Positions 25,884 through 30,857 of a stretch of 36,573 nucleotides of DNA are shown here, in pieces. The notes beneath the pieces were generated by a model. The model saw only the letters and a program-made list of their open reading frames with translations. It ran no database searches and was not told the DNA's origin. Origin of the DNA: a virus (lineage: Duplodnaviria > Heunggongvirae > Uroviricota > Caudoviricetes); IMG/VR virus record IMGVR_UViG_2728369393_000013, one strand, 5' to 3'. Every line of letters begins with the position of its first letter. Positions within the stretch are counted from its first letter, which is position 1. The translations under genes and the position numbers were made by a program.

Positions 25884-26636
25884 TTATCTCGTCACTTTTC
25901 TTAATTGCACCTCAGCATATGCTTCTTCCTGCCAGCACTTTGTAACCAGTTTATCAATGACATCTGCATATCCTTTGTACCACTGATAATCCGTCAGGTC
26001 TGGTACCAGCTTCTGGACATGACACCGCGCCAGTGTCGTTGGTAAACGACTAAACCGGTTTCCATTGCAACGCCCACAAACCTTATAAACAGGCGTGCTA
26101 TGAAGCCGGGTTCTTTTTTCATCCAGGACAATACCTTTCCCCTTACACCCTCTGCACGCTGTGCTGACTTCTCCCTTACCATGGCAATGCTGACATAGTT
26201 CCTTCACCCACTCTTCCTTGATAACAGATTCCCCACTTCTGGAGTGTTTCACCACTTCGCGCAATACATTATGAAATCCAGTACCAGCACAATACTCACA
26301 GCGAGCCTTACTTGCCGCAGACCTGGAATAATCAGCAAAGGCAAAATTCACAAGGTAAGGGATGATCTGTAACCGGATTTCTTCACTCAATTTGTTCAAT
26401 GTCGGATTATCCATTGCCATCGCGTAATTGAGCAGACCTTCAATCGCAAACTGAGGATCCTGAACACCAACTTTTGCCAGGAATAAGGCAAAACCAAGCG
26501 GAGCTTTCGACTGCACCATCCCCTGCGCAGCCATCACATCTGTTATTGTTAAACCACCCGAGCCTGTCGCCGGTGCGTCATCACTCAATTTTGGAGATTT
26601 TGGGGAGTAATATTTTGGTAAAGCTTCAAGGTTCAT
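25884..26636 (-). CDS. quuQ: Late-gene antiterminator Q (250 aa, zinc-finger type)
   Basis: Cys-rich motifs (CEYCAGTG, CQHCHGKG, CRGCKGKG, CGRCNG); length and position upstream of lysis region. Confidence 0.8.
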   Translation of the reverse strand: MNLEALPKYYSPKSPKLSDDAPATGSGGLTITDVMAAQGMVQSKAPLGFALFLAKVGVQDPQFAIEGLLNYAMAMDNPTLNKLSEEIRLQIIPYLVNFAFADYSRSAASKARCEYCAGTGFHNVLREVVKHSRSGESVIKEEWVKELCQHCHGKGEVSTACRGCKGKGIVLDEKRTRLHSTPVYKVCGRCNGNRFSRLPTTLARCHVQKLVPDLTDYQWYKGYADVIDKLVTKCWQEEAYAEVQLRKVTR

Positions 26637-27646: not shown

Positions 27647-28522
27647 TCAATGAACGGTATCGAGCAGCTTTAACAGCTCAGGGAATCGGGATTCGAAGAA
27701 ATGCGGCTGCGTCTCGCGCGGATTTGCAGGACTGGTGATGTTCTTGCCGAACATGCAGCCTTTCGCCGTCAGCGACCAGAATTTTTTGATGTTGTTAATC
27801 GCGGTACGGCTGTATCGTTCGCGTTGTTCAACGATCCCCAGCTTCACCATCTGGTGATATGCCTGATTAGCCGTCAGGCGGATACCATACTGTTTCAGCA
27901 GTGCACTCAGCGACAGCGTGGGGCGACTTGAGCCATCAGGCGCGTCAGCAGGAGCATCAATGGCATAGCGCGGTGCCAGATTCGGTAAGCCAACAGCCTC
28001 CTGAAGCTTCTGACAGGCTCCAAGCACTGATGAGTTAGACAGGTTTAATTCCCGGCGCATAAAGTCCAGCAGGATCACGCCAGCCTGCATCTTGTCAGCA
28101 GCCTGCCCGGATAATTTTTCCGGTGTGCTGGTTACCATATCGAAAGTACGGATCACCTTCAGATGGAATGACGGGCTGATCCACATTGCATAGGCATACA
28201 CCAGTTCCTTGCAGACATACGTTCCTCCATTCCGCCCTTCTATTTTACTTACTGGTTTACTACCCAAATTTTGGGTAGTTTCATTGAATGAACCGACACC
28301 CAAATTTTGGGTATCGATCAATTCCTGAACCAGCTCAGTAATCTGTTGGCTGGAAAGAAACTTTCCCGGCTCCTTAGTTCTGGCATTTGCACCAGATGCA
28401 ACAGCAGCCCGATGCAGATCGTTCAGGCTGTAACGCCCATAAGCATCACGACGAACTTCAATACCATCAATGACCATCAGATTATTCATACTTCGTTTCT
28501 CCTCTTGATCAGGCGGCTGCAC
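27647..28522 (-). CDS. KilA-N domain protein, antirepressor-like (291 aa)
   Basis: N-terminal MVIDGIEVRRDAYGRYSLNDLHRAAV typical of KilA-N/APSES domain; internal TQNLG repeat. Confidence 0.55.
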   Translation of the reverse strand: MQPPDQEEKRSMNNLMVIDGIEVRRDAYGRYSLNDLHRAAVASGANARTKEPGKFLSSQQITELVQELIDTQNLGVGSFNETTQNLGSKPVSKIEGRNGGTYVCKELVYAYAMWISPSFHLKVIRTFDMVTSTPEKLSGQAADKMQAGVILLDFMRRELNLSNSSVLGACQKLQEAVGLPNLAPRYAIDAPADAPDGSSRPTLSLSALLKQYGIRLTANQAYHQMVKLGIVEQRERYSRTAINNIKKFWSLTAKGCMFGKNITSPANPRETQPHFFESRFPELLKLLDTVH

Positions 28523-28898
28523 CCGCCGTTTTCTCGTACTTACTGATAGTGATCTCGACCTTCCCTTCCGGGATAACCGGTCCCCACTCCACCAGCATTC
28601 TTTTCACCTGACTGTCGTCTTCCCACACACCCGCGTGGGTCAGGGCGTCAAACAGCGCCTTGTTATAGTTGTCCAGATCGCGGATCCGGTTATCCGGAGG
28701 AAACAACACGATCTCCACTGAAGCAGGTGCCGACGTTGGTTTCGGCAGACGACGTAACTGCTCAACTATTGCTGCACACGCCGCGCTCTGGAATTTGCGC
28801 CCCGCCGCGCTTATCAGGCTCTTACCTGCAAACGCCCCTTTGTTGGGGTGTCGCCAGTACGTGTTCACGCTGGGCGGAAAAGGCAGGATCAGCTTCAT
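28509..28898 (-). CDS. rusA: RusA-family Holliday junction resolvase (129 aa)
   Basis: Conserved DLDNYNKALFDALTHAGVWEDDSQV block and size. Confidence 0.8.
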   Translation of the reverse strand: MKLILPFPPSVNTYWRHPNKGAFAGKSLISAAGRKFQSAACAAIVEQLRRLPKPTSAPASVEIVLFPPDNRIRDLDNYNKALFDALTHAGVWEDDSQVKRMLVEWGPVIPEGKVEITISKYEKTAGAAA

Positions 28899-29581
28899 GC
28901 CACTATCTCCCTGACCAGCCGTTCTGCCTGCTGGCGAACCTGCGCCAGAAACGCCTCACCACATGCCTCAAGTTCATCGCGCCCGATGTAGCTGATTGCC
29001 GGTCCCTTCCAGGTCTTGTCAAAAACAGCAATAGCACCAGCGAAGAAAGCGCCTGTCGGCACCTGCTTCTCGTCTTTCGGGATAAACCAGGCAGGCACTT
29101 CAAAACCAATACGCCCGCGAATAAAAGCAATATGATCTGCATCTTCCGGCCACCACACTTCGCTGGTGGCAGCTTTGATCAGGAAAACATAGCGTCCGCC
29201 CTTATCACGCATGGCACTGGCATGCTTCATGATGTAACGCATGCCGGTGATGTATTGCCCCTCATGCTGACTGGCGCGGCTGTATGGGGGATTACCAAAG
29301 GCAGCACCTTTAAGCTCCGCAAGACGTTCTGACCAGTCATGCGCCAGCGCGTTGTCTTCCGCCGTGTAATACGCGGTACATTTGGCGTTATCACCGTCAG
29401 TAAACAGATCCAGGACAAACGGGCCAAACAGGGTGTTAATTCCCCAGAAAATGTTATCCGGCGTGCGCCACTGATCGCCCACTTCCTTCAGTTCATGGGC
29501 TGGTTTGTTCCGCAGCTCCACCAGCTCCTGGCAATATTTATTACTCATTAAGCCCCCACGTAATTCCCTGACAGATACCAC
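28895..29581 (-). CDS. Phage-type N6-adenine DNA methyltransferase (228 aa)
   Basis: NPPY catalytic motif (FGNPPYSR) and overall phage Dam-like architecture. Confidence 0.7.
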   Translation of the reverse strand: MVSVRELRGGLMSNKYCQELVELRNKPAHELKEVGDQWRTPDNIFWGINTLFGPFVLDLFTDGDNAKCTAYYTAEDNALAHDWSERLAELKGAAFGNPPYSRASQHEGQYITGMRYIMKHASAMRDKGGRYVFLIKAATSEVWWPEDADHIAFIRGRIGFEVPAWFIPKDEKQVPTGAFFAGAIAVFDKTWKGPAISYIGRDELEACGEAFLAQVRQQAERLVREIVA

Positions 29582-30042
29582 TCATCACCCGATACAGCGC
29601 GCTTGCTGCTTTTCCGTAAGCACCGCTCACGACGTGCCAGAAAATTGTTTCGTTCTGGCTGGGAGTGGCTTTCACGGAATGCCGCCATCCACACGGTTGC
29701 AGCACGACGGTATAAGCCCCTGGACTCCAGTTCTTCAGCCTGGCGGGTCAGGCACAAAATCACCCGGGGATCGTTAGTGCCGACATAGAAATTGCGCACA
29801 GGTCTGGTTTCACGAACTGGTTGTGGTTCCGGCTCCTGCGCTCTCTCAGTCAGGCGCGGGAAATGTCTGCGTGTATCTCCTTCACAACGGTGAGCCACAC
29901 GCCCACTCTGACGTAACTTGCTTGCAGACTGCAGAACGCGCTGCCGTGAGTAACCTGCAAAAGCATCCGCAATGTCTCCGGAAGTACACCCCGGATGGGC
30001 TTCAATGAATTTCTGAACTTCATTCAAAAGACTCATGATCAC
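29548..30042 (-). CDS. Putative PerC-family (Pch-like) transcriptional regulator with N-terminal extension (164 aa)
   Basis: AEELESRGLYRRAATVWMAAF resembles the PerC core motif as recalled; not verified by search. Confidence 0.4.
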   Translation of the reverse strand: MIMSLLNEVQKFIEAHPGCTSGDIADAFAGYSRQRVLQSASKLRQSGRVAHRCEGDTRRHFPRLTERAQEPEPQPVRETRPVRNFYVGTNDPRVILCLTRQAEELESRGLYRRAATVWMAAFRESHSQPERNNFLARRERCLRKSSKRAVSGDEWYLSGNYVGA

Positions 30043-30857
30043 CCCCTGAATCCTGCCGGGATCTGGCTGTAGTCCACGTTGTCGTAACTGGCTTTGAAGT
30101 ACGGGTCCTCGCGTCTGGCTGCAGATACCGCAGGAACTTCCCAGGATTCTTCGAAATGACGATCCGGACCAAAGAACGTGACAGCCTGTTTCACAAATTG
30201 TGTGCCGCTGTTACCCATCGCAGATACCCAGCCCGCGTAGCGTTTCACACCTTCCAGCATGGTTTCGGGTTTTACCCCCTCATTCAAACGGGCTTTCCAG
30301 GCTTTGAAGGCTGCAGATTTTGAATTGCCACCAGCACGTTTGGGATATGCCAGCCATGCCTGCTCAAACTCCGGAGAGTATTCCGGTCGGTTTGAACGAA
30401 CTCGCACAGACTCATCAGCAGATGCACCAACAGCTATTGGTTCTTTGACTGGTTCTTTGACTGGTTCAAAAGAGTGACTGGTTCTGGGTGAATCTCCTGC
30501 ACTACCCCCTGGTGCAACTCCTGCACTACCTGGTGAATTTGCTGCACCAGATAGTGAATTATTTGCACTACCCCCTAGTGAATCTCCTTCACCATCCAGA
30601 TGAAGGAGATAGATATTACTTGAGTTACCTTTTTCACCTTTCCGGGTGACTTTTTTTACCAGCCCGGACTCACAAAGGGCCGCAATATGATTCATCACAG
30701 AACGTTTGCTAATCTCGCACTGGTCAGCAATATGCTGGTAGCTGGGCCAGCACTCACCCTGATCGCTGGCATTATCAGCCAGCTTGATCAGAACCAGTTT
30801 TCGCAATGGATTACCCACTCGAATTTTCATCGCTTTAACCATCAGCTCCATACTCAT
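30039..30857 (-). CDS. Putative replication initiator (N-terminal HTH domain, Gly/Ser-rich linker encoded by iterons)
   Basis: N-terminal winged-helix-like region (LVLIKLADNASDQGECWPSYQHIADQC...); central protein repeats coincide with direct DNA repeats; position downstream of cro/cII-like genes. Confidence 0.5.
   Translation of the reverse strand: MSMELMVKAMKIRVGNPLRKLVLIKLADNASDQGECWPSYQHIADQCEISKRSVMNHIAALCESGLVKKVTRKGEKGNSSNIYLLHLDGEGDSLGGSANNSLSGAANSPGSAGVAPGGSAGDSPRTSHSFEPVKEPVKEPIAVGASADESVRVRSNRPEYSPEFEQAWLAYPKRAGGNSKSAAFKAWKARLNEGVKPETMLEGVKRYAGWVSAMGNSGTQFVKQAVTFFGPDRHFEESWEVPAVSAARREDPYFKASYDNVDYSQIPAGFRG
30437..30600. repeat. Iteron-like direct repeats inside the replication gene (candidate phage origin)
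   Basis: GGTTCTTTGACT tandem x2.5 at 30437-30467 and five imperfect ~21-bp units GTGAATCTCCTGCACTACC-like at 30485-30595, followed by AT-rich stretch 30600-30640. Confidence 0.55.

Follow-up and report, generated by a model that had tools for sequence, protein, structure and literature searches.

Does a phage gene that carries a PerC-type signature act on the virulence genes of the host, or does it serve the programme of the phage itself? The question is raised by two neighbouring genes in IMG/VR record IMGVR_UViG_2728369393_000013, a stretch of viral DNA of 36,573 nucleotides, the whole of which is referred to below as the window. One of them, yfdN (29548..30042, minus strand), encodes a protein that combines a predicted winged helix-turn-helix (wHTH) domain with a PerC core; the other, dam (28895..29548, minus strand), encodes an N6-adenine DNA methyltransferase. 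An earlier note on this DNA had placed the methyltransferase before the regulator and had regarded the pair as cargo. With respect to transcription the regulator gene is the upstream one, and yfdN is a translationally coupled gene of an early operon, not moron-type cargo such as pchA. The identification of the pair is correct and already known, both members being commonplace genes in the early operon of a prophage type that is widespread. It is likely, in our judgement, that the region belongs to the early rightward (replication or nin-like) operon of a degraded lambdoid prophage of the SfV/mEp460/e14 type in an E. coli chromosome and that it works by the mechanism proposed below, in which YfdN would be a modulator of early transcription. 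The position of yfdN right after the replication initiator is invariant and therefore suggests that the protein belongs functionally to the replication or early module.

The early operon and the constant neighbour of yfdN

All of the genes at 26–32 kb of the window are on the minus strand, where the gene order is cro-like ymfT … ash, rep, yfdN, dam, rusA, kilA-N, DUF968 and the Q-like antiterminator ydfT. Directly upstream of yfdN lies the replication initiator gene rep (HTH_36 or DnaD-like; 30039..30857, minus strand), the product of which scores 44.1 bits on Pfam HTH_36 and matches phrog_270 with an E-value of 2.5e-88. Directly downstream of dam lies the gene for a RusA Holliday-junction resolvase (28509..28898, minus strand; Pfam RusA, 56.4 bits). 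Each gene of this series touches the next: the TGA stop codon of rep overlaps the GTG start of yfdN (GTGA), the stop codon of yfdN and the ATG of dam share one base (TAATG), and the stop codon of dam overlaps the ATG of rusA (ATGA, 28895–28898). A crude promoter scan of the minus strand between 28.5 and 31 kb returned no promoter-like site, and no convincing internal promoter or terminator was found among rep, yfdN, dam and rusA. Because of these overlaps between stop and start codons, and because no convincing internal signal was found, the four genes are most probably co-transcribed, starting at the early promoter that adjoins ymfT and the gene for the YmfK repressor. The label 'nin region' that the earlier note had used is fair in a positional sense, since the genes are flanked on one side by the replication gene and on the other by ydfT (25884–26636, minus strand), which encodes a Q-type antiterminator.

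Two candidate features of the yfdN–dam junction were rejected. The annotation of phage SfV places a dam promoter inside orf40, equivalent to 29613–29639 of the window, but its hexamers are weak (−35 TTGCGC and −10 TACGGA) and the −35 element reads CTGGCA here. No yfdN–dam fusion or programmed frameshift is claimed either, as the two clusters that contain both Pfam domains (P0021 and P0024) are singletons and probably reflect sequencing or assembly errors.

The gene context was surveyed in 80 IMG/VR loci encoding YfdN relatives. In 79 of them an HTH_36/Phg_2220_C replication gene is located directly upstream of the regulator gene, while the downstream gene varies: a PF05869 dam gene follows in 59 loci, an MT-A70 gene in four and a LexA_DNA_bind gene, directly, in 16. 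The commonest order, found in 54 of the 80 loci, is rep, regulator, dam, a gene resembling the N-terminal part of lexA, and rusA. Since the upstream gene is the same in all loci but one and the downstream gene is not, the replication gene is the constant partner of the regulator; a methylase is a frequent neighbour but not an obligatory one.

Such constancy might mean that YfdN assists the phage replication module and is no ordinary transcription factor, whether it partners or regulates the HTH_36/DnaD-like initiator at the origin or has a Ren-like exclusion function. The replication gene is found upstream not only in the survey but in every phage that was examined, down to regulators of 33–45% identity; the yfdN start overlaps the rep stop, a weak PHROG match to a Ren-like exclusion protein (E = 0.0069) was obtained, and pchE in Sakai Sp7 is likewise located 3′ of primase and single-stranded DNA-binding protein (SSB) genes. 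Adjacency is, however, positional evidence, and genes of the lambda nin region lie after P as well and yet have no part in replication. In phage cdtI rep and dam are kept while the regulator gene has shrunk to 28 codons, so that the regulator is dispensable for the organization of that genome, and the only relatives that have been characterized experimentally, PerC and Pch, act on transcription and H-NS. Such an accessory function is rated as unlikely, and modulation of early transcription is the role that we prefer.

Domains of YfdN and the PerC label

YfdN comprises 164 amino acids (aa) when read from GTG 30042 (RefSeq WP_072147590.1, 'PerC family transcriptional regulator'). The true start is probably ATG 30036, which gives 162 aa, because the distant homologues all start with MS(L/I). 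The entire protein aligns with phrog_1324, 'transcriptional activator' (E = 1.3e-78), and on the Pfam hidden Markov model (HMM) PF06069, PerC, it scores 38.1 bits against a gathering threshold of 22.6 (E = 1.9e-9), with aa 100–153 aligned to HMM positions 5–58 of 90. These scores are far above chance. The significant PerC match that the earlier note had anticipated for 29548–30042 therefore exists.

An AlphaFold2 model of YfdN has a mean predicted local distance difference test (pLDDT) score of 77 and falls into three parts. The first is an N-terminal wHTH domain (aa 2–62; 29857..30039, minus strand), identified with AlphaFold2 and Foldseek, in which three helices (residues 2–15, 21–27 and 33–46) are followed by two strands (49–54 and 57–62) that form a β-hairpin wing; its block-mean pLDDT is 77–90. 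Foldseek aligned this domain with wHTH proteins of the SmtB/ArsR, BlaI/MecI, MarR (MepR and SlyA) and Fur/PerR types, at root-mean-square deviations of 1.6–3.1 Å over about 60 columns and with probabilities of 1.00. Profile matches of YfdN itself to wHTH families are weak (phrog_1687, MarR, E = 7.8e-5; BilQ, 17 bits); two distant relatives exceed Pfam wHTH cut-offs, P0184 on MarR_2 (32.5 versus 27) and P0200 on Penicillinase_R (22.9 versus 22.6). The second part is a Pro/Glu-rich linker of low confidence (aa 63–91; 29770..29856, minus strand), with pLDDT below 50 at aa 65–83 and with gaps and variable length in alignments of homologues. The third is the PerC core (aa 92–151; 29590..29769, minus strand), a module of three helices (92–107, 111–124 and 128–151) with a block-mean pLDDT of at least 90 over residues 91–140, decreasing to 72 at 141–150. 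The predicted make-up of YfdN is thus a wHTH domain for DNA binding, joined by a flexible linker to a module of three helices with homology to the first 55 residues of PerC and Pch.

This two-part arrangement is shared by a family. When 1.84 billion representatives were searched exhaustively with HMMER, 103 matches were obtained; more than 20 of these are proteins of 138–165 aa whose alignment to YfdN spans almost all of it and includes both domains. The YfdN family keeps a C-terminal tail with the pattern W-x-L-[SA]-G-x-[YF]-x-G, which is missing from PerC and Pch. Six separate stretches of one protein of 462 aa, P0201, match the PerC core of YfdN, whereas Pfam gives only matches of the low-complexity type; the probable explanation is a repetitive sequence or a biased composition, not a true multi-PerC repeat. 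No sequence relative of either YfdN or Dam was found in the PDB.

The likeness to PerC and Pch that the earlier note had seen in the C-terminal half of YfdN is real but confined to a core of 55 residues, the C-terminal half of PerC being missing. The core signature A-x2-LE-x2-G-[LF]-[YW]-RRAA-x2-W…RR-x2-C is present in YfdN, with A102, L105, G109, R113, A114, A115 and C141 as invariant residues. BLASTP gives 40% identity to PchA over 50 aa, and an hhalign comparison of a profile of 19 YfdN-type proteins with a PerC/Pch profile gives a probability of 98.9% and an E-value of 1.9e-17, over 55 columns only. PerC of enteropathogenic Escherichia coli (EPEC), PchA and PchE score 143–153 bits on PF06069 and cover positions 1–89/90, whereas in YfdN positions 59–90 are unmatched and the full-length single-domain PerC architecture of about 90–104 aa is not present.

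Does the label nevertheless describe the function? YfdN might be a virulence regulator of the PerC/Pch type that activates ler/LEE1 within the enterocyte effacement locus (LEE), or other targets such as curli, flagella or fimbriae, in LEE-positive enterohaemorrhagic E. coli (EHEC). The PerC threshold is passed, and A-x2-LE-x2-GLYRRAA-x2-W…RR-x2-C is kept in the core. The background of the host, a check proposed in the earlier note, is also of the appropriate kind. The chromosome of E. coli CFSAN004176 (NZ_CP014583.1) shows 100% identity to the 2.5 kb around the gene pair and 99.98% identity to 28 kb of the window, and this strain is a LEE-positive EHEC of serotype O145:H25 from a patient with hemolytic uremic syndrome, with the LEE at pheU (PMC5567499). 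In addition, the designers of a K-12 ler::lacZ reporter strain removed yfdN from it, calling the gene 'the K12 unique PerC homologue' (PMC5931665).

These points are outweighed by others. The resemblance is partial (HMM positions 5–58 of 90 and 38 bits, against 143–153 bits for PerC, PchA and PchE), and in place of the C-terminal half of PerC and Pch there is the family-specific tail. Even full-length PerC homologues, PchD and PchE, have little effect on the LEE (PMC6265319, PMC5931665). The gene yfdN (at least 80% of its length) is present in 2547 of 5426 complete E. coli genomes (47%), K-12 included, and also in Shigella and Salmonella phages, and is thus not tied to the LEE; because it is just as common in LEE-negative hosts, any link to virulence is weak. 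Its location inside a translationally coupled early operon also differs from that of pchA, which stands apart on the opposite strand, in the late part of Sp4. A dedicated LEE role for YfdN is considered quite unlikely, given the partial resemblance, the small effect of PchD and PchE, and the equal frequency in LEE-negative hosts.

The methylase and its slot

The second gene encodes an orphan phage N6-adenine DNA methyltransferase of the T1/HP1/SfV Dam type, with 217 aa from ATG 29548 (RefSeq WP_069357288.1). Its identification in the earlier note as a phage methyltransferase with an NPPY motif is borne out by Pfam PF05869 (155.7 bits against a cut-off of 28.1, E = 1.2e-45, HMM positions 3–167 of 169) and by TIGR01712, 'phage N-6-adenine-methyltransferase' (253.2 bits against 97.05, positions 1–165 of 165). 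Catalytic motif IV, read from the sequence and its translation, is NPPY in the context FGNPPYS (aa 86–89; 29282..29293, minus strand). The longest mechanical open reading frame is 28895–29581, from a GTG, while RefSeq and every homologue start at ATG 29548. The gene overlap described in the earlier note does exist, but with the annotated ATG it amounts to the single nucleotide of TAATG, and a 34-nucleotide overlap arises only from the mechanical GTG start.

Dam is flanked by yfdN and rusA in an early phage operon with no cognate restriction endonuclease adjacent, and is therefore an orphan. It is 97% identical to the Dam of SfV. In a study by Allison and coworkers from 2002, SfV orf41 was reportedly confirmed by experiment as a Dam methylase, and the SfV enzyme is said to methylate GATC. 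From family membership, the identity to SfV Dam and this reported activity, GATC is the predicted target of the enzyme in the window. Counts of GATC itself differ along the DNA: over the whole window (1–36573) the site is scarce, with 112 occurrences where a second-order Markov estimate predicts 160.6, and in the early region at 26–34 kb it is not, with 41 observed and 40.9 expected.

The slot between the regulator and rusA is shared by two unrelated adenine-methylase folds. In distant relatives with regulators of 33–35% identity it holds an MT-A70 methylase with a DPPW/DPAW motif, which scores 85–87 bits on PF05063 (L011:3914–4609 and L013:3941–4594). When the regulators were clustered at 90% identity, a methylase was adjacent in three of seven clusters, two of them with MT-A70, and none was present in the slot in the remaining four.

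The recurrence of methylases beside the regulator might mean that the two proteins work as a pair, for instance with the methylase under the control of YfdN or with YfdN as a reader of methylated GATC sites, and that their adjacency has been selected. Dam stands next to the regulator in 59 of the 80 loci, the two clusters with the unrelated MT-A70 look like non-orthologous replacement in one slot, and the adjacency survives at 45% regulator identity in phage F1055. The pairing is nevertheless far from fixed: no methylase occupies the slot in four of the seven clusters, and in 16 loci the LexA_DNA_bind gene comes directly next. Phage cdtI keeps dam without the regulator, yfdN, at 2547 genomes, is clearly commoner than dam of the type in the window, which, by the same length criterion, is found in 1725 of the 5426 complete E. 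coli genomes, and methylases are routinely shuffled in mosaic nin-type regions. A selected pair is very unlikely.

Predicted role and related systems

The reading that we favour can be put as a sequence of events. Inactivation of the YmfK repressor, which is of the LexA/CI type, would switch on the early promoter, and rep, yfdN, dam and rusA would be made together. From its domain content and context, YfdN is probably an early-expressed DNA-binding modulator; by analogy with Pch, it would act as a sequence-targeted modulator of early transcription or as an anti-silencer, its target most probably being phage or other horizontally acquired AT-rich DNA in the lytic programme and not the LEE. Pch relieves silencing by H-NS/StpA/Hha and lowers the occupancy of H-NS at LEE1 (PMC4764244), and the PerC-type module of YfdN might relieve silencing in the same manner. 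Dam made after induction would methylate both the replicating phage DNA and the host DNA, so that progeny DNA would stay fully methylated and be shielded from GATC-sensitive restriction in the next host.

Several points count against this reading. DNA binding by the wHTH domain and any contact with H-NS are predictions from models, and the Foldseek E-values for the 60-residue domain are modest (0.03–0.2) despite the probabilities of 1.00. Co-transcription is drawn from gene spacing and a crude promoter scan, and the GATC specificity of Dam from the identity to the SfV enzyme together with what is reported of that enzyme. The searchable literature yields no experiment on the function of YfdN: it contains over-expression and expression screens, such as a nitric oxide transcriptome of strain CFT073 in which yfdN appears in the differential-expression table beside neighbouring prophage genes (PMC5320621), and the precautionary deletion mentioned above. 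Furthermore, the prophage is degraded according to RefSeq. ISEc23, of the IS66 family, splits the gene for the small terminase subunit, only a fragment of the portal gene is left and a further DNA-packaging gene is cut short, all within a stretch at about 12–17.5 kb of the window (L001 3380–9008). The prophage is probably unable to form virions, although its early operon looks intact, and a role of YfdN or Dam in the phage life cycle may be vestigial here.

As it stands, the pair matters little. RefSeq already names both genes on NZ_CP014583.1 ('phage N-6-adenine-methyltransferase' and 'yfdN: PerC family transcriptional regulator'), and yfdN occurs in about half, and dam in about a third, of complete E. 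coli genomes. The added value is modest: the gene boundaries have been corrected, YfdN is predicted to have two domains, it is invariably coupled to a replication gene, and the PerC label calls for caution. YfdN is a very common E. coli prophage protein, and 'PerC family' should not be taken to mean 'LEE activator', because only the 55-residue core is shared and both the architecture and the genomic context are different.

A broader proposal can be offered tentatively, as a possibility that we ourselves regard as doubtful. YfdN-type proteins (wHTH plus PerC core, 138–165 aa) may represent a distinct, unstudied family of phage early regulators, invariably coupled to the HTH_36/Phg_2220_C initiator, in which the PerC core would be a portable anti-silencing module, directed at H-NS, possibly related to the ANR (AraC negative regulator) family and targeted by the wHTH domain. 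PerC and Pch would then be domain-minimized offshoots of a regulator of the phage life cycle, and the next slot would preferentially recruit N6-adenine methylases of unrelated folds, either PF05869 Dam or MT-A70. If the wHTH prediction, the coupling to the initiator and the relation to ANR and H-NS were true, YfdN would provide an entry point to the origin of PerC/Pch-type anti-silencers from phage early genes.

The suggestion of an ANR relationship comes from the NCBIfam ANR model NF033650, which aligns, always in the same register, with the PerC core of YfdN, of PerC, PchA and PchE, and of most relatives. In the window this register corresponds to 29584–29745 (YfdN aa 100–153), and it recurs in P0202, L006:18487–18756, L004:28365–28679 and L005:21772–22044. 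YfdN scores 23.5 bits, under the cut-off of 32 bits, and the matches of its PerC/Pch relatives are mostly sub-threshold too; P0202, a PerC-family protein, is above the cut-off on both the PerC and the ANR models. Homology between PerC and ANR is not claimed, as hhalign comparisons of an ANR protein from enterotoxigenic E. coli p948 (L090:43990–44184) with the PerC and YfdN profiles were non-significant (probabilities of 2.8% and 0.2%). Our literature search found nothing linking PerC, ANR and Aar, and two key ANR papers are silent on PerC and Pch. A relationship is a possible, unproven lead, of interest since Pch and Aar have H-NS as a common target, and Aar is known to bind it (PMC5570504).

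The nearest known counterparts of the locus are other prophages and phages. The same module is found in SfV, SfII, SfIV, mEp460, Stx2a/2c/2k phages, ST64B (68% identity) and Salmonella phage F1055 (45%). In SfV, orf40, the yfdN homologue, and dam (orf41) encode proteins that are both 97% identical to those of the window and lie in the same order 3′ of the replication gene; SfV and most relatives differ in that a small LexA_DNA_bind gene (orf42 in SfV) is inserted between dam and rusA, whereas in the window dam is followed directly by rusA. The K-12 cryptic prophage CPS-53 (KpLE1) encodes a YfdN (b2357) that is 96% identical over all 164 aa and is listed as uncharacterized. The gene order there is likewise a replication-gene fragment, yfdO, then yfdN and the methylase gene yfdM, but yfdO and yfdM (91 aa) are truncated remnants, while their counterparts in the window are of full length.

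More remote comparisons concern the core alone. The ANR proteins Aar and Cnr resemble the core of YfdN in being small three-helix modules, although YfdN lies below the ANR cut-off. PerC, from the EPEC plasmid pEAF/pMAR2, and PchA–E of EHEC O157 share with YfdN the 55-residue helical core and its GLYRRAA-type signature, but they are single-domain proteins of 89–104 aa, to which YfdN adds an N-terminal wHTH domain and from which it differs in its C-terminal tail. The gene pchE is carried by Sakai Sp7 (L005:14711–30171), an 'untypable' small element with the order integrase, primase, SSB, pchE and then head, protease, portal and terminase genes; this layout resembles that of a capsid-forming phage satellite, and the PerC homologue is again located just 3′ of replication genes. 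Other members of the family are placed differently: pchA of Sakai Sp4 is a gene apart in a late region and perC follows perA and perB on a plasmid, whereas yfdN follows, and is coupled to, a phage replication gene.

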